From Solirubrobacteraceae bacterium (GTDB lineage Bacteria; Actinomycetota; Thermoleophilia; Solirubrobacterales; Solirubrobacteraceae): DNA of 64,000 bases. The stretch's first letter is position 1, and every line of letters begins with the position of its first letter. Of the stretch, positions 19,633 to 51,728 are shown in pieces. Position numbers and translations under genes: made by a program. The stretch spans positions 3,932 to 67,931 of the forward strand of contig JBFWKS010000001.1 in NCBI GenBank assembly GCA_050252545.1. Reading direction: 5' to 3'. Under the pieces are notes generated by a model. It had not been told where the DNA came from. It made no database searches and worked only from the letters and a program-made list of their open reading frames with translations.

Positions 19633-20115
19633 ATGGAGCACCAGCCACCCCCCGGACGACCGAGCCGCGACGACGCGGACTCGGTGGCGATGGTGCGTGA
19701 GCGCGCCGATGTCGGCCATGCTGCGGGTGCGTGGCGGCGGGTTCTGGAGTTGTGGGACAAGGCGGCCGAGGATGAGGCCGCCCGTCGGTTGCTCGGGCGT
19801 GTCGGTCGTACGGTTCGGTTGTCGTCGTCGGATCTGCAGGACGCGTCGATCGTGATCCGTCTGCAGGGCGATATCGAGCTGATCGAGGATCGTGCGGAGC
19901 CTGCTGACATCGAGCTGACGATGGGCACCGCGGATCTGGAGCGTCATGCTGACGGGACGTTGCGTGTCGCGATGGCGATCGCCGCGGGGCGGGCGACGTT
20001 CACCGGGCCGGTTCGCGAGTTCCTGCGGGTGATCCCGATCGTCCACGCGATCGCCAATCCGCCGGTGGCCGTGGGGACCAACACCGACTTCGACGTCCAG
20101 GACGGGGAGTTCTGA
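19633..20115 (+). CDS. SCP2 sterol-carrier-like lipid-binding protein
   Basis: ADIELTMGTADLERHADGTLRVAMAIAAGRATFTGPVREFL aligns by eye to the SCP2 core of the 45390-45791 protein; TGATG coupling to the ATPase. Confidence 0.65.
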   Translation: MEHQPPPGRPSRDDADSVAMVRERADVGHAAGAWRRVLELWDKAAEDEAARRLLGRVGRTVRLSSSDLQDASIVIRLQGDIELIEDRAEPADIELTMGTADLERHADGTLRVAMAIAAGRATFTGPVREFLRVIPIVHAIANPPVAVGTNTDFDVQDGEF

Positions 20116-20990
20116 TGAGCACCACCACCTCTGCCGGCGCCGCCGATCCCGCGACCGCTGCGCTGTTGGACAAGGCCGCCGATTACGACCATCACGAGGG
20201 CGGCATGGTCGTGCCGCAGCGTGATCCGGGCGATTTCTGGTCGATCGAGTGCGTCGATCTGTACAAGTCGTTCGGGTCCAACCGGGTGATGAACGGCCTG
20301 AACGTCGGCATCCCGGAGGGGATGATCACGGTCATCCTCGGCCCGTCGGGCACCGGCAAGTCGGTCTTGCTGAGCCACCTGATCGGGTTGATGTTCCCCG
20401 ATCAGGGCGACATCCTCGTGCACGGCCAGTCGGTGCCGGACATGACGATGAAGCAGCTGCTGGAGATGCGGCGCAAGTTCGGGATCCTGTTCCAGGACGG
20501 CGCGCTCTTCGGATCGATGTCGGTGTACGACAACGTCGCGTTCCCGTTGCGCCAGCACACCGACTTCGACGAGAAGCAGATCCGCGACATCGTGATGGGC
20601 CGCCTCAGCGAGGTCGGCCTCGCGGGTGGGGCGGAGCTGCGGATGCCGGCCGAGTTGTCCGGCGGGATGAAGAAGCGTGCCGGGTTCGCGCGGGCGCTGG
20701 TCCTCGATCCGCAGATCGTCATGTTCGACGAGCCCGACTCGGGTCTGGACCCGGTCCGCACCGCGCTGCTCTGCCAGCTGATCGAGAAGGTGCACTCCGA
20801 GAACGGCGGCACCTACGTCGTCATCACCCACGACATCGCGTCCGCCCGACGGATCGGCGAGTACATCGCCGTGCTGTGGAAGGGCCGGATCGTGCAGTCC
20901 GGTGACCGCGACGACATGTTCGACTCCCCCAACCCCTTCGTCCGCCAGTTCCTGGCCGGCCGCCCCGGCGGCCCGCTCGGGATGGAGTGA
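20115..20990 (+). CDS. mceG: Mce/Mla-type ABC transporter ATPase
   Basis: Walker A GPSGTGKS, LFQDGALF, LSGGMKKR, FDEPDSGLDP, ITHD. Confidence 0.9.
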   Translation: MSTTTSAGAADPATAALLDKAADYDHHEGGMVVPQRDPGDFWSIECVDLYKSFGSNRVMNGLNVGIPEGMITVILGPSGTGKSVLLSHLIGLMFPDQGDILVHGQSVPDMTMKQLLEMRRKFGILFQDGALFGSMSVYDNVAFPLRQHTDFDEKQIRDIVMGRLSEVGLAGGAELRMPAELSGGMKKRAGFARALVLDPQIVMFDEPDSGLDPVRTALLCQLIEKVHSENGGTYVVITHDIASARRIGEYIAVLWKGRIVQSGDRDDMFDSPNPFVRQFLAGRPGGPLGME

Positions 20991-21011
20991 CCCGACCCCG
21001 GGATCGAGCAC

Positions 21012-21884
21012 ATGGCGACCACCACACAACCCGCGACAGGACGCGTCGGTCCGTCCGGTCAGCCGACCGGGCCGGTCGACGGGCCCCCACCAGGCCGCAA
21101 GAGCGCCGGTCCGCTGGCACTGCTCGAGCAGATCGCGGACATGCTCATCCTCGCGTGGCGGACGCTCATCGCGGTCTTCACGCCGCCGTACTCCTGGCGC
21201 GACGAGTTCATCGAGGAGACCTGGATCATCATCCGGCGGTGCGCGATCCCGCTGATGATCTCGGCGACCGCGTTCGGCTTCGGGGCGCCGGGCCTGCAGG
21301 GCGGCAACCTCGTCGGCCTGCTCGGCACCATCGACCGGCTCGGCTCGTTCTTCGTCATGGCGTCGGTGCGGGAGTTCGCCCCGTGGATCACCGGCATGGT
21401 CGTGGCCGGCATCGGCGGCACCGCGGTGTGCGCCGACCTGGGCGCCCGCAAGGTCCGCCAAGAGCTCGACGCGATGATCACCCTGGGCCTCGACCCGGTG
21501 CGCACGATCGTCGCCCCCCGGTTCCTGGCGCTGGGCATCGTCACCGCCGCGATGAACCTGATCGCGATCATCATGGGCGTCGTCGGCGGCTGGCTCGCCG
21601 CGGTCGTCGTCTTCGGCGAGACGAGCGCCGGCTACTTCAGCACCTTCACCTCGAACTTCACCGTCCCGGACCTCCTGGGCAGCGTGCTCAAGACGACGCT
21701 GTTCGGCTTCATCGTCGCCGTCGTCTGTTGCTACAAGGGCATGCACACCAAGGGCGGTGCCGAGGGCGTCGGCCGGGCCGTCAACCAGGCGGTCGTCATC
21801 TCGTTCGTCGCCATCTGGGCGTTCAACTACGTGTTCACCACGACGTTGCTGGCCGCCTTTCCCGAGACGGGGAGCCTGCGATGA
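21012..21884 (+). CDS. yrbEA: YrbE/MlaE permease A
   Basis: VREFAPWITG, CADLGARKVRQELDAM, GGAEGVGRAVNQAVV. Confidence 0.9.
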   Translation: MATTTQPATGRVGPSGQPTGPVDGPPPGRKSAGPLALLEQIADMLILAWRTLIAVFTPPYSWRDEFIEETWIIIRRCAIPLMISATAFGFGAPGLQGGNLVGLLGTIDRLGSFFVMASVREFAPWITGMVVAGIGGTAVCADLGARKVRQELDAMITLGLDPVRTIVAPRFLALGIVTAAMNLIAIIMGVVGGWLAAVVVFGETSAGYFSTFTSNFTVPDLLGSVLKTTLFGFIVAVVCCYKGMHTKGGAEGVGRAVNQAVVISFVAIWAFNYVFTTTLLAAFPETGSLR

Positions 21885-22735
21885 GCACCGAGGCACCTCC
21901 CGGCTCCCGCCGGCCCCTGCGGCCGTCCGCCGGTCAGACCCTCGCCGAGGGCCTCGTCGGCCCGGTCCGCGGCACCCTGCGCGAGCTCGGAGAGATGACC
22001 CGGTTCTCGGGCCGCGCGGTCGTCGAGATCCCCGGGTCGTTCCGCTACACCGCGGAGATCCTGCGCCAGGCCGGTCTGTTGATCACCGGTTCGGCGATCG
22101 TCATCTGGGGCATGCAGTTCGTGATGGGCATGCAGTGCGCCACCGAGGCGAACTACGTGCTCCGCGGCTACGGCGCGTCCGCCTACTCCGGGGTGTTCAC
22201 CGCGCTGTGCGGCGCCCGCGAGATGGGCCCGTACATGTGGGGCTACATCGTCGCGGCCAAGATCGGCTGCGGCCTCGTCGCCGAGCTCGGATCGATGCGG
22301 ATCAACAACGAGTTCGACGCGATGGAGTCGGTCGGCATCAACCCGATGCGGTACGTCGTCGCCACGCGTCTCGTCGCCGCCTGGCTCGCCTTCCCGCTCC
22401 TCTACCTCGTCGGTCTGGCCTTCCACACGCTGGCGGACTTCTTCGTGATCGTCACCCAGATCAAGGAGGTCTCGCGTGGCGGGTTCGAGACGATCCACTG
22501 GCAGTTCGTGGGCCTGATGGACATCATCTATTCCGAGATCAAGATCATGGCCATGGGGACGCTCATCGTCCTGGTCGCCATGTACTACGGGTTCACCGCG
22601 CGCGGCGGACCGTCCGGAGTGGGCACCGCCACCGCCAAGTCGATGGTCCTCAACCTCGTCGTCGTCCACGTCGTCGGGTCCCTCCTGACGATGGTCTTCT
22701 GGGGCCTCGATCCCAGCTTCCCGGTCGGAGGGTGA
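21881..22735 (+). CDS. yrbEB: YrbE/MlaE permease B
   Basis: AKIGCGLVAELGSMRINNEFDAMES, GGPSGVGTAT. Confidence 0.9.
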   Translation: MSTEAPPGSRRPLRPSAGQTLAEGLVGPVRGTLRELGEMTRFSGRAVVEIPGSFRYTAEILRQAGLLITGSAIVIWGMQFVMGMQCATEANYVLRGYGASAYSGVFTALCGAREMGPYMWGYIVAAKIGCGLVAELGSMRINNEFDAMESVGINPMRYVVATRLVAAWLAFPLLYLVGLAFHTLADFFVIVTQIKEVSRGGFETIHWQFVGLMDIIYSEIKIMAMGTLIVLVAMYYGFTARGGPSGVGTATAKSMVLNLVVVHVVGSLLTMVFWGLDPSFPVGG

Positions 22736-22740
22736 CCCTG

Positions 22741-24045
22741 ATGCGTTCGATTCTGCGGCGGCCCTGGCCCGTCATCATCGTCGTGGGCATCGCGTTCCTC
22801 GGCTGGAAGGCGCTCAGCGATCGCCAACAGGAGTACGAGGTCCAGGCGGCGTTCGACTCCGCGGTGAACCTCACCACCGGCCTCGACGTCCAGATGCGTG
22901 GCGTCGACGTCGGAAAGGTCGCCGGGGTCCGGTACGAGGACGGCAAGGCGATCGTCTCGATCGGGGTCTCCGACGACCGTGTGTTCCCGCTCCGCAGGGG
23001 AACGAAGGCGACGATCCGATACGGCACGACCGTCGGCATCGGTACGCGCTACGTCGAGCTCCTCCCCGGACCGAAGGACGCACCGTCGATCCCCGACGGC
23101 GGCACCATCGCGTCGAAGGACGTCACGACCCCCGTCGAGCTCGACGAGGTGTTCAACACCCTCAACCCGGAGACGCGGGAGCGGCTCACGTCGCTCGTCG
23201 GCAACTCCGCTGACGTCACCGCCGGCCGGTCGAAGGAGCTCAACCGTGGCCTGCGGACGCTGCCGGGTGGGGTGCGGACCACCGGTGACGTCATGGGCGA
23301 CCTGCTCGCCGACGAACAGGCGATCCGTGCGCTCGTCGTCAACGGTGAGCGGGTCTCCCGAACGCTGGTGAGCCGCACCGGCGCGATCAGCGAGACGATC
23401 ACGGCCGCGCGACGGACGCTCGACGCGTTCGGCAACAGCGCCGACGGGGTCCGCGCCTCGATCGACGGCTTGGCCCCGACGTTCCGCCAGGCGCGCTCGA
23501 CCCTGCGTCGCGCCGACGGCAGCCTCGAGAAGGTCCGCACCCTCATCCGTGCCGTCGAACCCGGGGCCAAGCGGATCCCGGCGCTCGCCCGCGCGGCGCG
23601 CCCGGCGCTCGTGCGGCTGCAGCAGGTCACGCCCGTGGCGCTCGCCACGCTGCGGACGACCCGTGACGGCGCGCCGGCGGTGACGGAGCTCCTCGACAAG
23701 GGCCGCACCACGCTCCCGGCCGCGGGCACCGCGATGAAGACCGCGAACCCGATGCTCGCCTGCGTCCGGGCGTACGTCCCCGAGATCGCCGGGATGCTCG
23801 GCACCTGGGGCGGGGCGACGAAGAACTACGACGACCGGGGCCACTTCGGGCGGATCTTCGTGCGCGAGGGCGTCACCTCCCTGAACGGGCTGATCCCCGA
23901 CGCGGCGCTCCCGACCCTCCTCGGCCACAAGTTCGCGATGCCCCGACCGCCCGGACTCAACGCCGGAGCGGTGCACTACCCCGAGGAGTGTGAGGTGTCC
24001 GCGGACGCGCTCGACCCGACCAAGGACGTGGAGGCGGTCCGGTGA
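22741..24045 (+). CDS. MCE/MlaD family protein 1
   Basis: N-terminal TM, LTTGLDVQMRGVDVGKV, GTRYVELLPG, long helical region. Confidence 0.9.
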   Translation: MRSILRRPWPVIIVVGIAFLGWKALSDRQQEYEVQAAFDSAVNLTTGLDVQMRGVDVGKVAGVRYEDGKAIVSIGVSDDRVFPLRRGTKATIRYGTTVGIGTRYVELLPGPKDAPSIPDGGTIASKDVTTPVELDEVFNTLNPETRERLTSLVGNSADVTAGRSKELNRGLRTLPGGVRTTGDVMGDLLADEQAIRALVVNGERVSRTLVSRTGAISETITAARRTLDAFGNSADGVRASIDGLAPTFRQARSTLRRADGSLEKVRTLIRAVEPGAKRIPALARAARPALVRLQQVTPVALATLRTTRDGAPAVTELLDKGRTTLPAAGTAMKTANPMLACVRAYVPEIAGMLGTWGGATKNYDDRGHFGRIFVREGVTSLNGLIPDAALPTLLGHKFAMPRPPGLNAGAVHYPEECEVSADALDPTKDVEAVR

Positions 24046-25475
24046 ATCCGAAGATCCTCAGCACCGCGCTCGCGGCGGTCGTCGCGATCGTCGGCGTGAT
24101 CCTCCTCACCAGCGGTGGGGACGACGACGCTTACCAGGTCCGGATCGTCTTCGACGACGCCGGAGGCCTCGTCGAGAACGGCGACGTGAAGATCGGCGGC
24201 GTCGTCGCCGGGCGGATCATGAAGCTGCAGGTCACCGACGACGACCTGGGTGAGGCGATCGTCGAGCTCAAGGAGAACGCCGCCCCGATCGGACGCGGCG
24301 CCCGGGCCCGGGTCCGTCCCGTGAACCTCCTCGGCGAGAAGTACGTCGACCTCGACGCCGGTGACGTCCGCTCGCCGGAGCCGTCCGGGGTCGTCATCCC
24401 GCCCGGGCGGACCTCGGCGCCGGTCGAGCTCGACGACGCGATCAACATCCTCGATCCGGACAGTCGGGCGCGCCTTCGGATCCTCATCAACGAGACCGGC
24501 ATCGCTCTCGGCGGCAAGGGGACCGACCTCAACGCGACCCTCGCCCGTCTGCCCCGCGCCCTCGACGAGGCCGAGGAGCTCGTGAAATCGATCTCCGACA
24601 CGGGAAAGATCGACCGGCTCATCACCGACGGTGACCGCGTGCTCGCGGCCTTCAACGACGGACGCGACGACCTGACCGGCATGGTCGACTCGGCGGCGCG
24701 GACGCTCGCGGTCACCGCGCGCCTGCGGCAAGACCTGGGCCGGACCCTCGACGCCGCACCCGCCACCCTGACGCAGCTGCGCTCGACGCTCGTGAAGCTC
24801 GCGGGCACGGCGACGCGCCTGGAGCCCGCCGCCGTCGAGCTCCGTCGCACCGCGGGACCCCTCGCCGCGACGCTCAAGTCGGTCCCCGGCTTCCGGAGCG
24901 CGGCGGCGCCGACTCTGTCGCAGGTCCGGACGGTGTCGCCGAACCTCTCGCGCCTGGCGCGAGAGGCCTCGCCCACGATCCGGCGCCTGCAACCGCTCTC
25001 CGACGATCTCGTCACGTTCTCCCGGGCGCTCGATCCGGTGACGCGCATCCTCGACGTCCAGACCAACCCGCTGCTGCGCGTGATGGAGGGCTGGGCCCGC
25101 ACGATCCAGATGCGGGACGGTCTCGGGCACCTCTTCCGGACCGAGGTCACCGTCGACGAGGAGCTCCTCACGACGCTGCTCGTGCAGCTCCAGCCGGCGC
25201 CGACCGCGAACAAGCGCTCCCGCTCGGACGCGGACGACAAGCCGAGCGTCGCGGCCCGGAAGACGCCCCGATCGACGACTCGACGGCTGACGCCGGGCCC
25301 GGATCCGGCGCCGACCGCGACCGCGCGGACCCCGGACGACCGGTCGTCGTCCACGTCGACGGGGACGCCGCCCCCGGATCCCGCCGCGACGACCGGGGTG
25401 CCGTTGCTCGACGGCGCGGTCGGCGCGGTCGGCGGGGCCCTGACCGACCTCCTCGACTCCCTCCAAGGCCGATGA
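24042..25475 (+). CDS. MCE/MlaD family protein 2
   Basis: GLVENGDVKIGGVVAGRI, LLGEKYVDL; Pro/Thr-rich C-terminal tail. Confidence 0.9.
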   Translation: MNPKILSTALAAVVAIVGVILLTSGGDDDAYQVRIVFDDAGGLVENGDVKIGGVVAGRIMKLQVTDDDLGEAIVELKENAAPIGRGARARVRPVNLLGEKYVDLDAGDVRSPEPSGVVIPPGRTSAPVELDDAINILDPDSRARLRILINETGIALGGKGTDLNATLARLPRALDEAEELVKSISDTGKIDRLITDGDRVLAAFNDGRDDLTGMVDSAARTLAVTARLRQDLGRTLDAAPATLTQLRSTLVKLAGTATRLEPAAVELRRTAGPLAATLKSVPGFRSAAAPTLSQVRTVSPNLSRLAREASPTIRRLQPLSDDLVTFSRALDPVTRILDVQTNPLLRVMEGWARTIQMRDGLGHLFRTEVTVDEELLTTLLVQLQPAPTANKRSRSDADDKPSVAARKTPRSTTRRLTPGPDPAPTATARTPDDRSSSTSTGTPPPDPAATTGVPLLDGAVGAVGGALTDLLDSLQGR

Positions 25476-26770
25476 CCTCCCGACGCCGCTCCCGCCGTTT
25501 CTCCCGCGCGGCCAGCGCGACCCTGCCGCGGCCGGTGCTCTGGCTGCTGGGCCTGGGCGCCCTCGCCGCGGTCGCCGCCATGGCCTGGGTCGGGTTCAAC
25601 GCCCCGAACTCGATCCCGGGACGGAGCTACTACACCGTCCAGGCGGAGTTCGAGGACGCCAACAACCTGACCGGCCACTACGAGGTCCGCATCGCCGGCC
25701 GGCGCGTCGGCCAGGTGCTGAACCCGCGGGTGGTGGACGGCAAGGCCGTCGTCGACCTCCAACTCGAGCCCGACGTCGCCCCACTGCGGTCCGACACCAA
25801 GCTCCGGGTCCGTCCGCGCAGTGCGATCGGCGTCCGGTTCGTCGACGTCAGCCCGGGCGTGAAGGGGCGCCCGCTCGAGGAGGGCGACACGATCGCCGCG
25901 GCGAACACGTCGACCGTCGTCGAGCTCGACGAGGTCCTGGGCACGCTGGACGCACGCCGCCGGGTCGACGCCCGTACCGTCGTCCAGGAGCTCGGCACGG
26001 GCTTCGCCGGACGGGGCGAGGAGCTCAACGAGATGCTCGACGGCACCCCGACCGCCCTCGACCGGGTGGCTCGCGTCGCCGGCGAGATCAACGCTCGGGT
26101 CGGAGCGATGAGCGGGCTCATCGAGGGACTGGCCGGAACGCTCGGCGCGATCGATCCGGCGCGCGACGAGTACGTCAACGCGTTCGACTCGACCTCCCGG
26201 GGTCTGCGCCCGTTCGCGGAGAGCGAGCAGGACCTCGGGGCATCGCTCGACCGGGCCCCGGCCGCGCTGAGCGTCGCCCGGGCCGGCCTGCGCGACGCCG
26301 ACCCGTTGCTCGACGAGCTGTCCGGCATGGGTCGGGAGCTCGTTCCGGCGCTGCGGCCGGCGCCCGCCGGCCTGCGCCAGGCGGATGCGCTGCTCCGCGA
26401 ATCCCGTGACGGCCTCCGCGCCGCCCGCACGACGCTCCGGCAAGCGGACGACGCGATCCCGGTCACGCTCGACCTGCTGAAGCGCCTCGATCCGGTCATC
26501 CCGACGACGAGCGAGGCGCTGAAGGAATCGCTGCCGACGCTGGGCGAGGTCGGACCGCGCGGGTGCGACATCGCGCTATTCACGAAGAACTGGAGCTCGA
26601 TGCTCGGCCCCGCCGCCGCCGGCGGTGACCCGCGACTCGGCGGCGTGAGCAGCCTGCGTCTGCTCCTCATCGCGTCGCTCGAGAGCGTGATGGGGACCAC
26701 CCAACGGCTCCCGACCGTGATGTCGAACCCGTATCCCAAGCCCTGCACGGTGACGGAGGATCGTCGATGA
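25472..26770 (+). CDS. MCE/MlaD family protein 3
   Basis: LTGHYEVRIAGRRVGQV, IGVRFVDVSPG. Confidence 0.9.
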   Translation: MTSRRRSRRFSRAASATLPRPVLWLLGLGALAAVAAMAWVGFNAPNSIPGRSYYTVQAEFEDANNLTGHYEVRIAGRRVGQVLNPRVVDGKAVVDLQLEPDVAPLRSDTKLRVRPRSAIGVRFVDVSPGVKGRPLEEGDTIAAANTSTVVELDEVLGTLDARRRVDARTVVQELGTGFAGRGEELNEMLDGTPTALDRVARVAGEINARVGAMSGLIEGLAGTLGAIDPARDEYVNAFDSTSRGLRPFAESEQDLGASLDRAPAALSVARAGLRDADPLLDELSGMGRELVPALRPAPAGLRQADALLRESRDGLRAARTTLRQADDAIPVTLDLLKRLDPVIPTTSEALKESLPTLGEVGPRGCDIALFTKNWSSMLGPAAAGGDPRLGGVSSLRLLLIASLESVMGTTQRLPTVMSNPYPKPCTVTEDRR

Positions 26771-28191
26771 AGCTCTCCGAGCGATTCCAGCACCGGCCCG
26801 GCCGCGCCCGGCCGCGCCCTGTCCGCGTCGGCCTCATCGCCCTGGCGGTCCTGGGCGTCGTGCTCTACATGGGCTACACGAGCACCAACCCGCTCTCGGG
26901 CGGCAAGGGTGATCTGATCCGGGCCGAGTTCCGCGACGCGACGCACCTGCGCGCGAACACCGACGTCCGCGTCGCGGGGGTCAACGTCGGCAAGGTCGAG
27001 GAGGTCGAGCTCTCCGACGACACCAGCCGCGCCGTCGTGAAGCTGCGGATGAACTCCGACTCCGGCGTCACCCTCCATCGCGACGCCCGGGCCGCCGTCT
27101 GGTGGCGCACGCTCCTCGGCCGCAACACCTACGTCGAGATCGAGCCGGGTTCGCCATCGGCCGGCGAGCTGGGCGAGGGCACCATCCCTCTGGGACGCAC
27201 GACCGTCCAGGAGGAGCTCGACGCCGTCGTCTCGGCGCTCCCGCCCGAGCAGCGTCAGGCGACGCGCCAGATCATCGGCGGCTTCGACGAGGGCTTCTCT
27301 GACACCGCCGGCGGACGGCGGACCATCGACGCGCTCGACGGGGCGGGGCCGTCGCTCGCCCGTGGCCTCCGCGGACTCCGCGGCACCGAGGCCGGCGACC
27401 TGCCCAAGCTCGTCCGCGAGATGTCGAAGACCCTGGGCATCTTCGGTCGCAACGTCGTCGAGCTCGCGGGCTTCATCGACAACGGCCGGATCGCGCTCGG
27501 CACCATGAGCGCGAACTCCCCCGCCATCTCGCGCCTCGTCCGTGAGGCTCCGGCCGCCCTCGCCGACACGCGCCTCACGCTCACCCGGGTCGAGAAGACC
27601 CTCGACGACCTGGATCCGTTGGCCGTCAAGCTCGTGCCCGGCGCACGGAAGCTCGACCCGGCCGCCCGTGCCGCGACGCCGATGCTCCGGCGCCTCGACA
27701 CCGTTCTGAAGGACGCGACCCCGACGCTCCGCGATCTGCGCCCCGCCGTTCGGCGCCTGGCCGCGATGGCCCCGACGGGCAGGAAGGTCCTCACCGACCT
27801 GGACCCGACGATCGCCCGTCTGAACGACGAGCTGCTGCCGTGGCTCGACGAAGGTGACCCGGAGACGAAGATGCGCAACTACCAGGCGATCGGACCGTTC
27901 TTCAGCGCGACCAACTCGATGGGCTCCCCGTTCGACGCGAACGGCAACGTCCTCAACTTCCAGACGTTCGTCGACGAACGGTCCCTCCTCACCCTGGGCT
28001 GCATCACCCGCCTGACCGACCCGACCGCGACGATCACCCAGAAGCTCGACTGCCGTGGCCTCGAGGCGATCGTCCGGCGCATGTTGTCCGGTCAGGCCCC
28101 TCCCGGTGCCGGCGAGTTCGACCCCGCGCTCGACGAGGACGTCGGTGACCGCTCGCGTGCCGCGGGCCTGGCCCGGAAGGGAGCCCGCTGA
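26767..28191 (+). CDS. MCE/MlaD family protein 4
   Basis: LRANTDVRVAGVNVGKV, LLGRNTYVEIEPG. Confidence 0.9.
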   Translation: MKLSERFQHRPGRARPRPVRVGLIALAVLGVVLYMGYTSTNPLSGGKGDLIRAEFRDATHLRANTDVRVAGVNVGKVEEVELSDDTSRAVVKLRMNSDSGVTLHRDARAAVWWRTLLGRNTYVEIEPGSPSAGELGEGTIPLGRTTVQEELDAVVSALPPEQRQATRQIIGGFDEGFSDTAGGRRTIDALDGAGPSLARGLRGLRGTEAGDLPKLVREMSKTLGIFGRNVVELAGFIDNGRIALGTMSANSPAISRLVREAPAALADTRLTLTRVEKTLDDLDPLAVKLVPGARKLDPAARAATPMLRRLDTVLKDATPTLRDLRPAVRRLAAMAPTGRKVLTDLDPTIARLNDELLPWLDEGDPETKMRNYQAIGPFFSATNSMGSPFDANGNVLNFQTFVDERSLLTLGCITRLTDPTATITQKLDCRGLEAIVRRMLSGQAPPGAGEFDPALDEDVGDRSRAAGLARKGAR

Positions 28192-29456
28192 TGCGGTTCA
28201 ACCGAGATCGCCTCGCGCTCGAGGTCCAGCGGGCACGTGGACCGTTCCTGCTCTACATCCTCCTCGTGGCACTGGGAATCGTCGCGATGTGGTACCTCAC
28301 ACGCAACCTCGTCATCCAGTGGCCCTGGCAGGACACGAAGACGGCGAGGATCGTCGTCGACGACGCCAAGGGCATCGTGCCCGGCCAGCAGGATGTCCGG
28401 ATCGCGGGCGTCAAGGTCGGCCTGATCGAAGACGTCGAGACCGACGGCAAGGGTGCCGTCGTCACCCTGTCGCTGGAGGACAAGGCCGGGCCGATCTACA
28501 AGAACGCCCGGATGCGGATCCGGCCGGTCACACCGCTGCAGGACATGTACGTCGCGATCGAGAACCGCGGCACGCCCGAGGCGGGCGAGCTCGACGAGGA
28601 GACCGTGCTTCCCGCGGGGCGCACCGAGACTCCGACCGACGTCTCGCGTGTCCTCAACGTCATGGACGCCGATTCCCGTCAGCGGGTCCAGGCGCTGCTC
28701 AGCGGGCTGTCGGAGGGTCTGCCCGACGGTGGCGAGCGGCTGCGGAGCGCGTTCGCGGCGGTCGGACCGTTCGTCGAGCAGGCCACCGAGCTCACCGACG
28801 CGATGGGTCGACGCCGATCGCAGCTCGCGCGCCTGGTGCACAACGGCAGCCGACTCGCGGCCGCGATCAACACCCGCGACCGGCAGCTCGCCCAACTCAT
28901 GCAGGCCGGCAACGCGACGATGGCGGAGTTGGCGCAGCACAACGCCAACCTCGGATCGACGCTCGCTCAGCTCCCCGACACGCTCGCCGTGATGCGGAGC
29001 TCGTTCGCGCGGCTGCGCAAGTCGGAGGACCAGATCGACCCGGCTCTCCGGGCCCTCATCCCGGTCGCGGACAACCTCGAGGACGGCCTCGAGGGCCTGC
29101 GTCGGGTGAGCGGTGACGCGATGCCCGCGCTCGCGGCCGTGCGGACGCCGGTCAAGCAGCTGCGCCCGCTCGCCGGCGACCTCGAGACGACCTCCGATCG
29201 CCTCGACACCGCGCTCGGCGAGCTCGCACCGCAGGTGCCGCGGCTCGACCGGGCCACGAAGAAGGTCCTGCCCTGTCGATTCGCGACGGCCAAGTTCTTC
29301 CAGTGGACCCCGTCGGTCCTGAAGTACTACGACTCCGCCGGAGCCTACCCACGCGGTGAGATGGTCTACGGGACCGACGTCGTGCCCGGGCCCGGCAACA
29401 CGGATCCCGCGCTGTTCCGGCCGTGGACCTGCACCCAGAAGGAGGGACGGCCGTGA
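28191..29456 (+). CDS. MCE/MlaD family protein 5
   Basis: IVPGQQDVRIAGVKVGLI, PLQDMYVAI. Confidence 0.9.
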   Translation: MRFNRDRLALEVQRARGPFLLYILLVALGIVAMWYLTRNLVIQWPWQDTKTARIVVDDAKGIVPGQQDVRIAGVKVGLIEDVETDGKGAVVTLSLEDKAGPIYKNARMRIRPVTPLQDMYVAIENRGTPEAGELDEETVLPAGRTETPTDVSRVLNVMDADSRQRVQALLSGLSEGLPDGGERLRSAFAAVGPFVEQATELTDAMGRRRSQLARLVHNGSRLAAAINTRDRQLAQLMQAGNATMAELAQHNANLGSTLAQLPDTLAVMRSSFARLRKSEDQIDPALRALIPVADNLEDGLEGLRRVSGDAMPALAAVRTPVKQLRPLAGDLETTSDRLDTALGELAPQVPRLDRATKKVLPCRFATAKFFQWTPSVLKYYDSAGAYPRGEMVYGTDVVPGPGNTDPALFRPWTCTQKEGRP

Positions 29457-30796
29457 AGATCGAATACCGCGGAGCGAAGGTCATGGCGATCATCGCCTTC
29501 CTCGCGCTGTGCCTCGGCATCTTCGTCTGGCTCTTCGGACTGGCCGGAGGCCGGATGCTCGAAGGGTCGTCCTACACGGCGGTCGTCCGCATGCCGGACG
29601 CGTTCCAGCTCGTGTCGAACGCCGACGTCCGCAGCGCGGGCGTCAAGGTCGGCAAGGTCCGTGAGGTCACCAACGACGGGGACCAGGCCCGGGTGACGAT
29701 CAGCCTCGACGACGACCACGCGCCGCTGAACAAGGACGCGACGATCAAGCTGCGGACCAAGACGCTCGTCGGCGAGAACTACCTCGAGCTCATTCCGGGC
29801 AGCCCGAGGGCGGGCACCGTGCCGTCGGGCGGGACGCTGCCGCTGGAGCGGGCCGGGGAGTCGGTCCAGCTCGACCAGATCCTGTCCTCGATCGACCGGG
29901 AGACCCGGCGCGAGGTCCAGCGCAACCTCAAGCAGGTCGGCCCGGGCCTGGAGGGCCGCGGTAACGACACCAACGAGCTGTTCAAGGCCATGCCCCCGAC
30001 GGTGGACAACTCCTCCGCCGTCGCCCGCGTCCTCGACGGCCAGCGCGAGCAGCTCGGCCGTGTGGTCGACCAGGGCGGGCAGCTCCTCAAGGCCTTCGCG
30101 AACCGGTCCGACGACGTCCGGGCGCTCGCCGGTGGCCTGCGCCGCACGACCGCGGCGGTCGCCGATCGCGACGCCGCCCTCCGCGAGGGTTTCCGCGAGC
30201 TCCCGGCGACCCTCGAGCAGATCCAGAGCACGGCCGGACGCCTGGGATCGGTGGCGCGCGAGAGCACGCCGGTCGTCGCGTCCCTGCGCACCGGGGTGCG
30301 GTCGCTGCCGCCCGTCACCTCCCGCCTCGCCGCGGCGGCGTCGGACGGACGCCGGATCTTCCGGATCCTGCCGTCGGTCTCGCGCCGCGCCGACCCGCTG
30401 CTCGAGAGCCTGCGCGAGTTCTCCAAGGACGCCAACCCGGTGATCCCCCAGTTCGCCGGGTTCCTCCGGCAGGTCAATCCCGCGCTGCGCTACATCGGTC
30501 CGCGCGCTGAGGACATGGTCACGGCCATCGCCAACCTGGGTTCGGCCACCGATAGCCGCGACGACGCGGGCCACCTCGCCCGCGTCCACGTGGTCGTCAG
30601 CGAGAAGACGGTCACGGGGCTCGGCGTCACCGATCTCGTCGAGCGGTTCCTCGACCTCACCGGCGCCTCGTCGGTCTTCCGCAGCCGGCTCAACTCCTAC
30701 CCCGTGCCGGGCACGCGCGACGCGCCGCAGCCGTTCAAGCCCGGCGACTACGCGCCGCTGAAGGCGGACCCCCCGATCGCCGGTGCCGATGGGTGA
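29453..30796 (+). CDS. MCE/MlaD family protein 6
   Basis: LVSNADVRSAGVKVGKV, LVGENYLELIPG; GTGA overlap. Confidence 0.9.
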   Translation: MKIEYRGAKVMAIIAFLALCLGIFVWLFGLAGGRMLEGSSYTAVVRMPDAFQLVSNADVRSAGVKVGKVREVTNDGDQARVTISLDDDHAPLNKDATIKLRTKTLVGENYLELIPGSPRAGTVPSGGTLPLERAGESVQLDQILSSIDRETRREVQRNLKQVGPGLEGRGNDTNELFKAMPPTVDNSSAVARVLDGQREQLGRVVDQGGQLLKAFANRSDDVRALAGGLRRTTAAVADRDAALREGFRELPATLEQIQSTAGRLGSVARESTPVVASLRTGVRSLPPVTSRLAAAASDGRRIFRILPSVSRRADPLLESLREFSKDANPVIPQFAGFLRQVNPALRYIGPRAEDMVTAIANLGSATDSRDDAGHLARVHVVVSEKTVTGLGVTDLVERFLDLTGASSVFRSRLNSYPVPGTRDAPQPFKPGDYAPLKADPPIAGADG

Positions 30797-30811
30797 CCCG
30801 GGCGTGAGAGG

Positions 30812-31633
30812 GTGGGGTCCGTGGCCACGTCGCTGACCTACTCGCGCATCGTCGTCCCCCGCTCGATCGGGGTGCCCGACGGGGCCTACGGCCTCGATCG
30901 GGACGGCGACGTACCGGCTCGCGATCGCGCCACCGGCCTGCCGCGGCGCTCCGACGGGGAGGACGTCCTCGTCGTCCGCAGCGACCGGATCGACGACGGG
31001 CGGGCCGTGTCGACCCGGGTGTCGATCGTCCACGGCGAGCGGTTCTCGGCCGCCGACGCCAAGGCGCGCCTGGAGCGCTGGCGTGACGACGTCGACGCCC
31101 GCCAGGTCGAGCGCGACGCGGTGATCGTCGCGGTCAACCGGGCGATACGCGCCTACCGCCTGGGCAGCGGCGACGCGTACGCGCTCGAGGTGACGGTCGA
31201 GGACGTCAACGAGTCCACGCTCGGCATCGTCTCGCCCGAGGGCGCGTTCCGCGGCGAGACCGGGGACGCGCTGTCGCCCGACCGACCCCGCTCGCGTCGG
31301 CCGTCCCGGCTCGAGGTCAACCAGGCCGGCGAGGCGGTGGGCCTGGGCCTGGGGTTCGGCGACCGGTTCCTCGAGGGCGAGGAGCTGCTGGTGATCGCCG
31401 GACGCGAGTCGTCGCTGGGTCGCGACCGGTCGGCCCACGCCGCCCTACGGGCCGGAGCCGGACTGATCGTCGACGAGCTGGCCGCGGACCCGACGGCGAC
31501 CGACGCCCGCTCGGTCGCGGTCGCGGTCGTGTCCGATGGCGAGCCCGACGACGTGCTCGACGACGCGCGACGGTTGCAGGACGCGCTCGACGGCTGGCGC
31601 CGCGACGCGCGGGCCGCCGCGCACGGCACCTGA
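30812..31633 (+). CDS. Hypothetical soluble protein at the end of the Mce operon
   Basis: 273-aa ORF 15 nt after last mce gene, typical codon usage, no TM segment; start may be GTG 30821. Confidence 0.65.
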   Translation: MGSVATSLTYSRIVVPRSIGVPDGAYGLDRDGDVPARDRATGLPRRSDGEDVLVVRSDRIDDGRAVSTRVSIVHGERFSAADAKARLERWRDDVDARQVERDAVIVAVNRAIRAYRLGSGDAYALEVTVEDVNESTLGIVSPEGAFRGETGDALSPDRPRSRRPSRLEVNQAGEAVGLGLGFGDRFLEGEELLVIAGRESSLGRDRSAHAALRAGAGLIVDELAADPTATDARSVAVAVVSDGEPDDVLDDARRLQDALDGWRRDARAAAHGT

Positions 31634-31669
31634 CGGGTGGGGAGCCGGTTGATCACCCCCCGCCGTGGC

Positions 31670-31840
31670 TCACATCGGTTCGAACTCCGACTTGCGGGCA
31701 CCGCAGACCGGGCACATCCACGACGCCGGGATGTCACTGAACGCCGTTCCCGGGGGGATGCCGCCGTCGGGATCGCCCTCGGCCGGATCGTAGATATAGC
31801 CGCAGGACTCGCAGATCCACTGGGCGTCGGGGTCGGACAT
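31670..31840 (-). CDS. Rubredoxin (56 aa)
   Basis: [40 protein letters not shown]; GAGGAG RBS. Confidence 0.97.
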
Positions 31841-31957
31841 GGCACTCCTCGTCGGTCGGTCTGTCTGGGGGCCAGCAGCGCGGGCGCTCCGCCGCCCCAG
31901 CGTATGCGTTCCGGCGACGCCGCGGGACGCGCCTTCCACCGAGAACTGACCGGGCGC

Positions 31958-31974
31958 TTGGTCGTTTCGACCAC
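31958..31974. promoter_or_regulatory. 17-bp inverted repeat between rubredoxin and PucR gene
   Basis: TTGGTC-GTTTC-GACCAC; a TACGCT -10-like hexamer for rubredoxin lies at 31899-31904 on the minus strand. Confidence 0.5.
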
Positions 31975-31995
31975 GTTCGACAGGCCGGCTCGACG

Positions 31996-33270
31996 GTGAA
32001 GCCGCGGCCCGGCAGAGCGAGCGCCGTACCCGTCTGCTCCCCGAAGGCCGAGCAGCTGATCGCGGTCGCCGCCGGACGGCTGGAGCGGACGTCGGACGCC
32101 GTCGCCGTCCGTCTGATCGAAGAGGTCGAGATCCGCATGCCCGAGCTCAAGGGCGACGAGGAGTTCCACGACGCGCTGCTCGGGGTCGCGCGCGGGAGCG
32201 TCGAGCTGATCTCGACGATGATGCGCACGTGGACCGACCCGAGCGTCGTGCCGCCCCCACACGAGGCGCTCGAGTGGGCGCGCAGCCTCGTCGGTCGCGG
32301 CGTGTCGATCAACGACCTCCTGCGCGTGTACCGGCTCGGGCAGGCGACCTACCAGGACCTGTTCTACGCCGAGGTCGGCCAGCAGGGCGCCGATCCTGTG
32401 ACCGCGATGGAGGCGATGCGCGCCTGCTCCGCGTTCGCGTTCGCGTGGATCGACGCGATCTCCACGCCACTGATAGCCGCCTACGAGGAGGAGCGCGACC
32501 GGCGTCAGCAGGGTGCGGAGGCGGTGCGCGTCGAGACGATCGAGGCGATCCTCGCGGGCGAGGCGGTCGACCCGCAGATCGCCGGTGCCCGGCTCCGGTA
32601 CGACCTGGGCCGTCGGCACGTGTGCTTCGTCGTGTGGGCCGACGACGACGGTGGTCCAGCCACGCCGCTCGACCTGGACCAGGCGGTCAGCGAGGTCATC
32701 GCCGTGATCGGGGGCGGCGGTCGGCCGCTGCTGCTGCGGTCCTCGCCACGGGTCACGATCGGGTGGACGGCCCGGTCGACGGCCGACGACGGAACCGAGG
32801 ACGCGCTGGCGCCGCGGCTGCGCCGGTCCGGCTGCCGGGTCGCGGTCGGGGCGGTCGGGGAGGGCGTCGCCGGGTTCCGCACGTCGCACGATCAGGCGAT
32901 GCGGGCTCGCCGCGTGGCCCGAATCCTCCGCGGCGGCGCCCAGGCGACGTTCTTCGACGCGGTGGCGGTCGAGGACCTGCTGACGCGTGACGTCGACGCC
33001 GCGCGTGCGTTGGCGGTACGGACGCTCGGCCCGCTCGCGGCCGACGACGACGCCACGCGACGCCTGCGGACCACGCTGCGCGTGTACCTGGAGGAGGGCC
33101 AGAGCCTGGCGCGAGCGTCGCGTCGACTCGGTATCCATCAGAACACGATCGCCTACCGCGTACGGCGGGCGATCGAGCTCACCGGGCAGTCCGACGCGGG
33201 CTCCAAGGCCCTGCAGGCAGCCGTGCTGCTCGCGCCGCTGCTGGGCGGCAAGGACGCCGACGGGGGCTGA
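31996..33270 (+). CDS. PucR/CdaR family transcriptional regulator
   Basis: Helical N-domain, GGDEF-like middle, C-terminal HTH ([32 protein letters not shown]). Confidence 0.9.
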
Positions 33271-33411: not shown

Positions 33412-33595
33412 CACGACCGGACGATCCTGTGGCGAAAGGTTGGGCGGGGAGCCGCGATGCGAGCGACCATCCAGCCAGGGGAGGGACCCGACGGTGCTGG
33501 TGATTTCACCGATGTGTCGTGGGCACGGTTCGGTGTTCGCCCCAGTCCGCGATTCGGCGGGCAGGAGAGGATCAGGCAGTCCACCGGGGAGAGAG

Positions 33596-34879
33596 ATGAC
33601 GATGATCAAGGGACAGGGTGAAGTGCGGGGAGGCACGGTCACCGAGGACGGGTCCACCTGGGCGTTCAACGCACCACGGATCACGGAGAAGCGGTTGCGC
33701 GAGGACGTGGAGAGCGTCCTGCAGTGGGCGGTCGAGCTCGGGTACGCCGGGACGGATGTCGACGGCGCCCCGCCCCGGATCGAGGACCTGGAGGCCGGTC
33801 GCGACGCGATCGGCGCCGCGCTGCACGACGCGCTCGAGGCGGTCCGCACCGGCGGCGTCGTCGAGGGCCACGCCCGTCGCGGCACGGTCGATCTGGTCCT
33901 CGCCTGCCGCGACGTCGAGGCCCGGCTGCGCGACGCCGAGCGGGCGGCGGAGTCGATCGCGCTGGGCTCGGTCCGGGACGCGCTCGGGACGCTGCGCGAC
34001 CTGACCACCGTCGAGCAGCTGCTCGAGCGGGCGCCGGCCGCCGCGGTCCGACTGGGGTTCGATCGTGCGCTCGTGTCGGCGATCGAGCGGTCGGTGCTGG
34101 CGCCGCGCTCGTGCGAGATGGGCGGGGACGTGGAGCGCGCCGCGGCGATGATCCGCGTCGGACGCGAGAATCCGCGCCGGCTCGACCCGACGCTGCCCGA
34201 GACCGAGATCGTGCGGCGGCGCCGGGCGATCACGGTCCGCAACGCCGTCCACGACCCGCGGGTCCACCGGCCGTTGGTCGACGTGGCGGAGACGCGCGAC
34301 TACACGGCGGCGCCGATCATGGGTGGTGGCCGCGTGATCGGGCTGCTGCACGCCGATCACTTCGTCAAGCAGCGCCGGGTCAGCCGGTTCGACCGCGACC
34401 TGCTGTGGATGTTCGCCGACGCGTTCGGGCAGACCTTCGAGCGGATCGCGCTCGACGCGCGGGTCGAGGGGATCCGGCGGGCGGTCGGTCACGCGTCGGC
34501 GATGACGACCGCGGCGATCGGCCACACCGCCGACGTCGAGCTGACGCTCGGCGACGCGTGCGAGACGTCGGAGGCGCCGCCGCTCGCGCGGATGGCCCCG
34601 GCTCCCGCCCCGTCGGGCGCGTCGATCCTGCCGCCCGAGGACCGGGTCGACTCGGTCCTCACCCCGCGCGAGGTCCAGGTGCTGCGGCTGATGGCGGAGG
34701 GTGAGACGAACATCGGCATCGCCGAGCGGCTGATCGTCGCCCCGGGCACCGCCAAGACGCACGTCAAGCACATCCTGCGCAAGCTCTGCGCGTCCAACCG
34801 CGCCGAGGCCGTGTCGCGGTACCTGCAGCTCGAGCACGAGCGCTCGGCCGGGCGCCCGCGCGAGGCCGGCGGCTGGTGA
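33596..34879 (+). CDS. GAF-LuxR transcriptional regulator (paralogue 1)
   Basis: GAF-like region (AAPIMGGGRVIGLLHAD), LuxR HTH LTPREVQVLRLMAEGETNIGIAERL...TAKTHVKHILRKL. Confidence 0.88.
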   Translation: MTMIKGQGEVRGGTVTEDGSTWAFNAPRITEKRLREDVESVLQWAVELGYAGTDVDGAPPRIEDLEAGRDAIGAALHDALEAVRTGGVVEGHARRGTVDLVLACRDVEARLRDAERAAESIALGSVRDALGTLRDLTTVEQLLERAPAAAVRLGFDRALVSAIERSVLAPRSCEMGGDVERAAAMIRVGRENPRRLDPTLPETEIVRRRRAITVRNAVHDPRVHRPLVDVAETRDYTAAPIMGGGRVIGLLHADHFVKQRRVSRFDRDLLWMFADAFGQTFERIALDARVEGIRRAVGHASAMTTAAIGHTADVELTLGDACETSEAPPLARMAPAPAPSGASILPPEDRVDSVLTPREVQVLRLMAEGETNIGIAERLIVAPGTAKTHVKHILRKLCASNRAEAVSRYLQLEHERSAGRPREAGGW

Positions 34880-42337: not shown

Positions 42338-42390
42338 GCCAGATCCCTGCTCACCATCACGCGTTGTGGACACCATGACGCCTCGCCCGT

Positions 42391-42420
42391 GCCCCGACGG
42401 GCAGGAGAACCCGTCGGGGC
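42391..42420. terminator. Perfect 11-bp stem hairpin (terminator or operator) between P450 and plsB
   Basis: GCCCCGACGGG-CAGGAGAA-CCCGTCGGGGC; no U-tract. Confidence 0.4.
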
Positions 42421-42427
42421 GACGGAT

Positions 42428-42549: not shown

Positions 42550-43869
42550 TCAGTGCGGGACGGGGCAGGTCGCGGTGGCGTCGGCAACGGTCCCGGTGGC
42601 CGGCGTCCCGCTGCCGGAGGTCACCGGCGTCCAACGGACCTGCAGCCGGTGGATCCCGTTGATGAAGTTGTTCTCCTGGTACTCCGGCTCGTCGGCGGTG
42701 AGGTCGGGCATCGTGCCGTAGACCTCGCGCAGCAGCGACTTGAGCGTCGTGCGGGCCAGCGCGTTGCCGAGGCAGTAGTGCGGGCCGCCGCCACCGAACG
42801 CGACGTGGCGGTTGGGGTCGCGGAGGATGTCGAACTCGTCGGCGTTGTCGTAGATCTCCTCGTCGCGGTTGCCCGAGCAATACCAGAGCACGACCTTGTC
42901 GCCCTGCTTGATCTGGGCGTCGCGAACCTGCACGTCCTGCGTGGCGGTGCGGCGCATGTGCAGCAGCGGCGACGCCACGCGGAGGATCTCCTCGACCGCC
43001 CCGTCGATCCGGCCGTCCATGTCCTCCAGCAGCAGCGCGAGCTGGTCGGGGTTCTGCGAGAACAGCCGGATCGCGTGCGCGGAGGAGTGACGCGTGGTGT
43101 CGTTGGCGGCGACGGCGAGCAGGACGAAGAACGCGGAAATCTCGTCCTCGGTCATGTGCTGGCCCTCCCACTCGGCGTCGAGCATCCAGCTGACGAGGTC
43201 CTCTCCGCGGTTCTCGCGCCGCTCCTCGGCGAGCTCCTGCACGACGGAGTGCAGGTCGATGACGCAGTCGGCGAACAGCTCCAGCCCGCTCTGCTCTCCA
43301 CAGACCTCCGGGTCGCCCCAGGCGAGCAGGCGCTGCGCGGCGCTGATGGTCTTCTCGTACAGACGGTCGGGGACGCCGAAGAAGCTCGCGAAGATCCGTC
43401 CGGGCAGGTGCATCGACACCAGGTCGACGAAGTCGCCCTCGCCCTTGGGCGCCATCTCCTGGACGAGGTCGCGGGCGTGCCCACGGACCCAGCCGTCGAG
43501 TCGGCGCATGTTCCTGGGCTTGAACGCGTCGAGGGTGATGCCCCGCAGCTGCGTGTGGCGCGGCGCGTCCATGGCGATGAACGACTGCGCCGCCTCGGTC
43601 ATCAACGGGTCGAAGGTCTCCATGGTGATCCCCTCGGCGCTGGAGAAGATCTGCGGGTTGCGGCTGGCGTAGCGGATGTCCTCGTACTTCGTCAGCGACC
43701 AGAACCCCTGGGTGTTGAGCTCGGGCGGCAGCAGGTCGGACTCCGGCGCACGGCTCCACGGCACCGGGTTCTCGCGGCGCAGGACAGCGAACGCGGCGTC
43801 GCGCTCATCCGGGTGCTTGGCCCAGAACGACTTGGCTGCGAGATCGATCTCATCGAGGGTGGTGCTCAT
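42550..43869 (-). CDS. Cytochrome P450 (CYP124/125/142/268-like clan), paralogue 1
   Basis: I-helix AVAANDTT, EEILR, heme motif FGGGGPHYCLG. Confidence 0.95.
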   Translation of the reverse strand: MSTTLDEIDLAAKSFWAKHPDERDAAFAVLRRENPVPWSRAPESDLLPPELNTQGFWSLTKYEDIRYASRNPQIFSSAEGITMETFDPLMTEAAQSFIAMDAPRHTQLRGITLDAFKPRNMRRLDGWVRGHARDLVQEMAPKGEGDFVDLVSMHLPGRIFASFFGVPDRLYEKTISAAQRLLAWGDPEVCGEQSGLELFADCVIDLHSVVQELAEERRENRGEDLVSWMLDAEWEGQHMTEDEISAFFVLLAVAANDTTRHSSAHAIRLFSQNPDQLALLLEDMDGRIDGAVEEILRVASPLLHMRRTATQDVQVRDAQIKQGDKVVLWYCSGNRDEEIYDNADEFDILRDPNRHVAFGGGGPHYCLGNALARTTLKSLLREVYGTMPDLTADEPEYQENNFINGIHRLQVRWTPVTSGSGTPATGTVADATATCPVPH

Positions 43870-51677: not shown

Positions 51678-51712
51678 GGTCGAAGTGTCCTCCCGGCCGG
51701 CGCCCGTGACCA

Positions 51713-51728
51713 TCGTCCGTCCGGGAGA
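51713..51728. promoter_or_regulatory. Candidate regulator site between P450-2 and hydrolase
   Basis: A-TCGTCCG-TC-CGGGAGA-G. Confidence 0.55.

Follow-up and report, generated by a model that had tools for sequence, protein, structure and literature searches.

A relocated general-clade rubredoxin beside a P450-linked PucR regulator in a Solirubrobacteraceae genome

The rubredoxin gene and its surroundings

The window analysed here is a stretch of 64 000 nucleotides (contig JBFWKS010000001.1, positions 3932 to 67 931 of the forward strand, assembly GCA_050252545.1; contig C1 below) from a metagenome-assembled genome (MAG) of the Solirubrobacteraceae, Patulibacter group (G000; 4.53 Mb in 480 contigs, 94% complete). 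It carries a small rubredoxin gene on the minus strand, placed between the 3' end of an mce lipid-import operon and a divergently transcribed gene for a PucR-type regulator, together with two cytochrome P450 genes. The rubredoxin belongs to a clade that is general in the family and separate from the rubredoxins linked to the alkane monooxygenase AlkB, and it has come to its present site by relocation. An earlier note on this DNA had described it as an orphan that might donate electrons to the two P450s and be co-regulated with the importer. Two relatives recur below: the nearest public relative, MAG JALNWQ01 (G061/G070, the sister genome below), and Patulibacter brassicae (G062/G064), which was in the same genus sample.

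The gene is an open reading frame (ORF) of 56 codons (31670-31840), running from ATG to TGA and encoding the two knuckles C10-E-S-C13-G and C43-P-V-C46-G. Its product matched the Pfam Rubredoxin family (PF00301) with an E-value of 1.8e-23 (82.8 bits, cut-off 23) and scored 89.8 bits against the NCBIfam model RubredRD (NF045768), which, at a cut-off of 90, puts it on the line for the equivalog. It aligned end to end with solved rubredoxins as a single domain with a conserved aromatic core, and its top PDB matches (E 1e-24 to 1e-19) were classical rubredoxins from Desulfovibrio, Pyrococcus and Clostridium. The AlkB-type entries matched more weakly (2v3b, Pseudomonas Rd2, 1.6e-15; 7a9a, Mycobacterium tuberculosis RubB, 1e-12; RubA 2kn9, 2e-12; the AlkB-AlkG fusion 8f6t, 3e-10). 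The likeness to the classical proteins (D. vulgaris 1rdv/1rb9, Pyrococcus 1brf, C. pasteurianum 4rxn; NF045768) covers the length of about 54 residues, the two CxxCG knuckles and the aromatic core. The host is different: it is an aerobic, P450-rich actinobacterium whose genome yielded no superoxide reductase and nothing beyond a marginal match to the rubrerythrin family (29 bits).

The start of the gene was fixed by comparison with the sister genome, in which the Shine-Dalgarno sequence is kept. A longer frame starting with GTG (31939) was rejected, as the two genomes are conserved only from the AGGAG/ATG onward. Between the two genomes the gene differs by 11 synonymous and five non-synonymous codon changes, which indicates an intact, live gene under purifying selection. 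Judged from its sequence, the protein is probably a soluble one-iron, one-electron carrier of general purpose for the lineage. It is a further member of a well-known family, and the use by P450s that was proposed for it has published precedents.

Genes of the window, whose DNA has a G+C content of 70-78%, were called by a frame method based on third-position GC (GC3); some small ORFs were not individually scanned. The features that bear on the rubredoxin are collected in Table 1.

Table 1. Coordinates of the rubredoxin gene, its neighbours and the two P450 genes in the window
Feature	Position	Strand	Basis or remark
mce lipid-import operon: yrbEA, yrbEB and six MlaD-domain Mce genes	20115..30796	+	Pfam MlaD, Mce4_CUP1; synteny with sister-genome locus L041
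Last mce-operon gene, Mas-like by position only, no Pfam family	30812..31633	+	ORF and GC3
Rubredoxin coding sequence	31670..31840	-	56 aa, monocistronic, general (non-AlkB) clade
Divergent control region, rubredoxin/PucR, 155 bp	31841..31995		Putative promoter region
Shine-Dalgarno sequence AGGAG	31845..31849	-	4 nt 5' of the rubredoxin ATG; kept in the sister genome G070
PucR/CdaR-type regulator, GGDEF_2 and HTH_30	31996..33270	+	Pfam; divergent from rubredoxin; candidate regulator of rubredoxin and the P450_1 module
LuxR-GAF regulator 1, downstream of PucR	33440..34879	+	Pfam GerE and GAF
P450_1, CYP268/CYP124/CYP125-like, candidate acceptor	42550..43860	-	Pfam; PDB 6bld, E 1e-98; CYP124, 3e-91
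P450_2, CYP268/CYP125/CYP124-like, candidate acceptor	50388..51713	-	Genome P450 scan; PDB 6bld, E 1e-96

The rubredoxin gene and the last mce-operon gene (92-97% identical in the sister genome) are convergent, with stop codons 36 bp apart. Between these stops, at 31647-31662, lies the sequence TGATCACCCCCCGCC, which contains the palindrome TGATCA and was kept in the sister genome despite diverged flanks; no terminator-like hairpin was detected at these positions. In the control region shared with PucR, a block at 31897-31912 was conserved with the sister genome (alignment with L041) and includes a TAnnnT-like hexamer, TACGCT, on the minus strand at 31899-31904. A palindrome-like element, TTGGTC-N5-GACCAC, occurs in the same region at 31958-31974. 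A consensus sigma-70 promoter or terminator was not found anywhere in 31400-32200. An inverted repeat at 31865-31900 was considered as a regulatory hairpin in the rubredoxin leader and discarded, its fold energies being no better than those of shuffled sequences (z +0.55 and -0.48).

On the other side of the control region, the PucR protein resembled the Rv1453 family of NCBIfam weakly, far below the cut-off. Beyond LuxR-GAF regulator 1 follow a lipase-like hydrolase and then, on the minus strand, gpsA, a HAD-acyltransferase (plsC-HAD) and a PlsB-like glycerol-3-phosphate acyltransferase (GPAT). P450_1 lies 174 bp upstream of the PlsB-like GPAT, HAD-acyltransferase and gpsA genes on the same strand (37610-43860, minus strand), and the four genes may be one unit in which a lipid hydroxylase is coupled to glycerolipid synthesis. 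Between the two P450 genes were found LuxR-GAF regulator 2, an alcohol dehydrogenase, an acyl-CoA dehydrogenase and an acyl-CoA ligase. Both P450s are nearest to the terminal lipid and sterol hydroxylases CYP268A2, CYP124 and CYP125.

Redox partners were searched for by six-frame family searches over the whole genome. On contig C1 these gave no FA_desaturase/AlkB match, no ferredoxin match (Fer4_15, Fer4_13, Fer2, Fer4) and no Pyr_redox_2 reductase match, and Pfam scans of the larger window ORFs returned only flavoproteins of the DAO type and FAD_binding_3. The profile searches thus confirmed, for this contig, the observation in the earlier note of a canonical rubredoxin and two P450s without AlkB, ferredoxin or reductase.

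Clade, distribution and relocation of the rubredoxin

Four rubredoxin loci were found in the genome, on contigs C1 (the window), C72, C30 and C174. On C30 the rubredoxin start overlaps the stop codon of alkB, whose product (416 aa, FA_desaturase family) matched PDB 8f6t with an E-value of 9e-148. In a tree of 49 rubredoxin copies (50 alignment columns), the AlkB-linked rubredoxins formed a separate clade (support 100/98), and the window copy fell among the general ones, on a short branch. The general clade showed no separation of NUDIX-adjacent from other copies, 50 columns being too few to resolve orthology there. The window rubredoxin is therefore not of the AlkB-linked type: it shares the fold and one-iron chemistry of the AlkG/RubA-type proteins, a system of which is present on C30, whereas its own gene is not adjacent to alkB and its sequence does not group with theirs. 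The description as an orphan rubredoxin without AlkB is accurate for the window and does not extend to the genome, where alkB has a rubredoxin of its own.

A general-clade rubredoxin with 65-86% identity to that of the window was found in 58 of 60 family genomes, mostly as a single copy (the figure includes the unpublished genome G003 and is 57 of 59 without it). Matches to the divergent AlkB-type rubredoxin (45-52% identity) were obtained in only about nine of the 60, AlkB itself not having been surveyed there. In 21 of the 29 family loci that were fetched (L044-L072), the rubredoxin and a NUDIX gene were divergently transcribed, their aligned coding parts being about 75-180 bp apart, and a spermidine-synthase-like or class-III aminotransferase gene came after the rubredoxin. 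Within the genus the general-clade gene was present in all 16 genomes, in three different contexts: divergent from NUDIX in four species including P. brassicae (L147-L150); with a GT4 and/or TetR gene on one side and NhaP on the other in ten, including G036; and convergent with the mce Mas-like gene and divergent from PucR in two, this genome and its sister. Both of these are MAGs, and no isolate is known to share their arrangement.

The genome retains the NUDIX locus on C209, where no rubredoxin adjoins it, and the sister genome (94% complete) has no general-clade rubredoxin besides the mce/PucR copy. The rubredoxin of this lineage has thus moved from the ancestral NUDIX-adjacent site to the site between the mce operon 3' end and PucR. 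A second general-clade copy on C72 (C72:8254-8421; L161) is 77% identical to that of the window and sits in an insertion of about 420 bp between DUF3159 and NlpC/P60 genes, the insertion being absent from this locus in G070, G064 and G036. Since the sister genome has only the one general copy, and since the C72 copy is an insertion, the window gene is the main, relocated general rubredoxin of the lineage and not a specialized extra.

The third paralogue, on C174 (C174:7628-8253; L004), is frameshifted after 'DPDGG' and is followed by an ORF resembling FprA/adrenodoxin reductase, which loses this resemblance after about 65 residues; the pair lies 1.4 kb downstream of a P450. The same remnant, identical, was found in the sister MAG (C27, L128), which excludes a one-off assembly error. 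From the reading frames it resembles a decayed rubredoxin-FprA module. The C174 locus was considered as an in-genome model of a rubredoxin-FprA operon and rejected on account of the frameshift and of the truncated FprA. Intact FprA homologues were not near rubredoxins where this could be checked: the two in G036 are distant, and the copy of the present genome is on C52, a contig free of rubredoxin.

Carriers, oxygenases and the PucR regulator

Some 23 P450 loci were found in the genome, and about six of them have a carrier or reductase within 3 kb: one on C99, two on C62 and one each on C276, C29 and the decayed C174. The C99 locus is a classical operon of P450, ferredoxin and ferredoxin reductase (FdR) with one 3Fe-4S ferredoxin. 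Three small Fer4 ferredoxins are encoded on C391, C195 and C29, and several Fer2 domains were detected, one of them fused within a P450 frame on C276. There are about eight flavoproteins of the FdR or rubredoxin-reductase type, besides the intact FprA-like gene. P450 genes without a neighbouring partner are therefore the normal state in this genome, and missing partners of this kind are ordinary among actinobacterial P450 genes. The search for alkB and ferredoxins that the earlier note had proposed thus located both outside the window contig (alkB on C30, ferredoxins on C99, C391, C195 and C29), and its remark that the P450s lack a ferredoxin is true of the window without being a peculiarity of it. 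On C29 (C29:3-4426; L167), a P450, a putidaredoxin-reductase-like FdR (PDB 1q1r, E 1.5e-101) and a PucR paralogue are on one strand with no ferredoxin between them; by its gene content this would be a class I P450 unit without its small carrier.

In relatives that have a second general-clade rubredoxin, this extra copy was often found in an oxygenase unit. In five genera (G037, G059, G032, G014 and G045; loci L083, L086, L088, L090 and L093), a second general-clade rubredoxin gene is located 20-25 bp downstream of a gene for an R2-like ligand-binding oxidase (R2lox), on the same strand. The five R2lox proteins are 68-77% identical to one another (best PDB matches 7qbp and 3ee4), and in G014 a rubredoxin-reductase-like gene follows the pair. 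An orthologue of this R2lox partner was not found in the present genome, the best match being 29% identical. In G010 (L077, C1:2180400-2200399 of that genome), a luciferase-like monooxygenase, a rubredoxin and a reductase form an operon, and yrbEA, with which an mce operon starts, is 2.3 kb away. A LuxR-GAF regulator lies near the G010 operon. Here too, and independently of the window, a general-clade rubredoxin is found next to an mce locus. In G044, alkB and its own rubredoxin are followed on their strand, after about 0.7 kb, by a general-clade copy that stands between two P450 genes, and in G013 one is 1.4 kb from a P450. The recruitment of extra copies, together with the scarcity of the partners known from anaerobes, fits, as far as gene neighbourhoods can tell, a carrier for oxygenases.

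The regulator next to the window rubredoxin belongs to a family of ten PucR paralogues in this genome (30-38% identity). Among the 60 sampled family genomes no orthologue above 39% identity was found, only paralogues. Among the 16 species of the genus, orthologues were restricted to the sister genome (76-78%), P. brassicae (57%) and G071 (48%). Orthologues of P450_1 (at least 63% identity) were found in exactly the same four of the 16 species, including this one; the other twelve have only paralogues with at most 53% identity. The two genes are also linked. PucR is followed by P450_1 after 147 bp in G071; in P. brassicae they are 3.5 kb apart, P450_1 being divergent from a group made up of a GMC oxidoreductase, an acyl-CoA ligase and PucR; and the distance is 9.3 kb in the present genome and its sister. 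Elsewhere in the genome, PucR paralogues flank P450s on C26 (0.8 kb) and in the C29 unit, and another adjoins a desaturase on C218.

In mycobacteria, monooxygenase clusters with a regulator of the CdaR/PucR type have been described (PMC8784404). One such PucR-HTH regulator beside the genes of an oxygenase system is EtnR1 of Mycolicibacterium chubuense NBB4, comparable to the paralogues that flank P450s and a desaturase here; unlike it, the window PucR has putative targets, is only about 30-40% identical to its own paralogues and stays far below the cut-off of the Rv1453 family. As the rubredoxin shares its 155-bp control region with this P450_1-linked regulator, it could be expressed together with P450_1. 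The co-occurrence and linkage of PucR and P450_1, as judged from gene order and phyletic pattern, are the strongest support for such a co-regulation, though an indirect one.

Possible roles of the rubredoxin

The reading that we favour, and to which we give about an even chance, is that the general rubredoxin serves as a promiscuous carrier for oxygenases, possibly under PucR control and outside the mce operon. An NAD(P)H-dependent flavoprotein encoded elsewhere in the genome would reduce the rubredoxin; candidates are a rubredoxin-reductase-like protein on C297, the putidaredoxin-reductase-like FdR on C29 and the FprA-like protein on C52. The C297 reductase is 48% identical to the reductase adjoining the G010 rubredoxin. 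The reduced rubredoxin would then act as a promiscuous electron donor to oxygenases lacking their own carrier, among them the partner-less P450s and the two CYP124/125/268-like enzymes of the window. The divergent PucR would set the transcription of the rubredoxin and in this way tie its supply to the lipid-oxidation module of P450_1.

There are precedents for a rubredoxin that drives a P450. RubB of M. tuberculosis supports CYP124, CYP125 and CYP142, with FprA the preferred reductase for CYP125, and it worked with FprA- and FdR-type reductases (10.1101/2020.10.27.356691). RubB (Rv3250c, 7a9a) is, as here, a small actinobacterial rubredoxin among many partner-less P450s; the candidate acceptors in the window are of the CYP124/125/268-like kind, and homologues of both reductase types are present in this genome. 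It differs in being AlkB-linked and part of an alkB-rubA-rubB operon, whereas the window protein matches it with an E-value of 1e-12 only, falls in the other clade, is encoded beside PucR and has a putative function. The second precedent is CayL, a rubredoxin that is the physiological redox partner of the P450 CayG in the caryoynencin pathway of Trinickia/Burkholderia (PMC9322674). CayL is encoded inside its pathway cluster next to its own P450, in contrast to the window gene, whose nearest P450 is in another transcription unit.

Several observations weigh against a carrier role for P450s or against the link to PucR. Four family genomes have the rubredoxin and no detected P450 (G008, G026, G035, G052), and two have P450s and no rubredoxin match (G049, G053), which means that P450s are not the sole or obligatory partner of the rubredoxin. 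No reductase or oxygenase gene adjoins that of the rubredoxin, and for both its acceptor and its reductase the genome offers candidates only. Rubredoxins have potentials of about -60 to 0 mV and are less reducing than the typical ferredoxins of P450s. The neighbours of the gene vary within the genus (NUDIX, TetR/NhaP, GT4), so that its position may carry little functional meaning. In G064 and G071, the PucR/P450_1 module is present while the rubredoxin stays at the NUDIX site. Shared operators were not detected either: when the rubredoxin-PucR region was compared with six other window promoters, the best 16-mer matches stayed within the range of shuffled controls, and a k-mer search in eight orthologous control regions of PucR and P450_1 (four species) did not rise above shuffles.

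A rival explanation is a housekeeping rubredoxin, whose main role would be unrelated to P450s or other oxygenases and whose present position would be an accident of rearrangement. Its partner could be linked to the NUDIX/spermidine-synthase-like neighbourhood, or it could serve in redox or iron stress or in cofactor biosynthesis; these roles are possible. The gene is nearly universal and single-copy in family and genus whatever the P450 content, including the four genomes in which no P450 was found; its ancestral neighbours (NUDIX, spermidine-synthase-like and class-III aminotransferase genes) are not oxygenases, its neighbours have changed within the genus, and its sequence is nearest to rubredoxins of the classical anaerobe type. 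Against this stand the extra copies of the same clade, which have entered oxygenase operons several times, some of these with a reductase and some not; the lack of superoxide reductase and near lack of rubrerythrin; and the nature of the new neighbour, a regulator tied to a P450 module. We consider the housekeeping explanation doubtful overall, though with a real share of the probability.

A further reading is that the only general rubredoxin of the lineage was captured by the PucR of the CYP124/125/268-like module and became, in place of a ferredoxin, the physiological, substrate-induced donor for P450s that omega-hydroxylate lipids imported by the neighbouring Mce system. This is unlikely as a whole; if true, it would mean that class I P450 systems depending on a rubredoxin also occur naturally in bacteria other than mycobacteria and without being part of an alkB operon.

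The proposal of the earlier note itself, that the rubredoxin donates electrons to the P450s of the window, keeps its plausibility through the published precedents and through the phyletic pattern and linkage of PucR and P450_1 (four of 16 species). It is weakened by the gene being the general copy and by distance: the P450s are 10.7 and 18.5 kb away in other transcription units, with gpsA, plsC-HAD and plsB intervening. Class I redox partners are recognized by adjacency to, or an operon with, a P450 or reductase gene, and here the nearest P450 is at 10.7 kb and the contig has no reductase. The co-occurrence analysis suggested at the same time gave a divided answer, as PucR co-occurs with P450_1 and the rubredoxin is universal, occurring also in the four genomes without a detected P450.

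Co-regulation with the importer, also put forward in the earlier note, was not supported. From the convergent orientation and the rubredoxin's own Shine-Dalgarno sequence, the gene is not in the mce transcript; it is on the opposite strand, and among the 16 genus genomes the arrangement occurs only in this one and its sister. The mce genes also differ from the rubredoxin in their divergence from the sister genome (L041, JALNWQ010000001.1): nucleotide identity is 96-100% over 22043-31342 (about 9.3 kb, mceA-F and most of the last mce-operon gene), against 85% on the left flank (18.1-21.6 kb) and 65-86% from 31343 on. This change is abrupt and falls 330 bp short of the rubredoxin, still within the 3' end of the last mce-operon gene. 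This block reflects either a recent recombination or transfer of the mce genes between two Patulibacter lineages or a chimeric metagenome contig. The jump in identity accordingly means that the mce block has another history than the rubredoxin-PucR segment, or that one of the contigs is chimeric. A degenerate motif, KTGGWC-N5-GWCCAM, has nine sites in the genome, and the only two intergenic ones are in the mce promoter and in the rubredoxin-PucR region. It was rejected as a shared palindrome, because the consensus had been built from those two sites and neither is kept as a palindrome in the sister genome, where the mce-promoter site keeps one half only and the rubredoxin-PucR site is lost.

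These results bear directly on the strict version of the proposal, in which the two P450s have the rubredoxin as their dedicated donor and its gene is co-regulated with the Mce importer as a unit of lipid uptake and oxidation. It can draw on the want of a ferredoxin or reductase in the window, on the P450s being of the kind supported by M. tuberculosis RubB (10.1101/2020.10.27.356691), on the intergenic restriction of the motif to the mce promoter and the rubredoxin-PucR region, and on the co-occurrence of PucR and P450_1 orthologues. Several points speak against it. An orientation convergent with mce and a separate Shine-Dalgarno sequence mean that the gene is not co-transcribed with the operon; both P450s are remote (10.7 and 18.5 kb), with glycerolipid genes between; and the motif was defined post hoc, its palindromes not being kept in the sister genome. 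In that genome the rubredoxin is, moreover, the sole one of the general clade, which excludes a dedicated copy; P450s without a partner are the usual case in the present genome; and the near-identical mce block is separate and ends 330 bp before the rubredoxin. The dedicated donor is thus quite improbable.

Least probable is a second, remotely encoded rubredoxin for the AlkB of C30, after the RubA/RubB pairs of other actinobacteria: the C30 alkB has otherwise only one rubredoxin, and in G044 the general-clade copy comes about 0.7 kb after alkB and the rubredoxin belonging to it, on one strand with them, but the window copy is outside the AlkB-linked clade, has far weaker PDB matches to AlkB-type than to classical rubredoxins, is on a different contig with a different regulator, and is of a type that appears far more widespread (58 of 60 genomes) than the AlkB-type rubredoxin matches (about nine genomes, AlkB itself not having been surveyed).

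The present value of the analysis is mainly corrective: the rubredoxin is an ordinary carrier of the family, the genome has alkB, ferredoxins and reductases, and P450s without an adjacent partner are normal in it. The comparison offers three leads that can be tested: a single general rubredoxin changes place between species of one genus, PucR and P450_1 travel together, and duplicates of the rubredoxin have repeatedly joined operons of R2lox or of a luciferase-like monooxygenase. Worth keeping, besides these duplicates, is the mobility of the rubredoxin within one genus, with its landing beside a regulator that co-occurs with a lipid P450. Should the rubredoxin indeed feed P450s, it would join M. 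tuberculosis RubB and CayL as a third natural example of a P450 driven by a rubredoxin, and would provide a practical redox partner for expressing the many orphan P450s of the Thermoleophilia.

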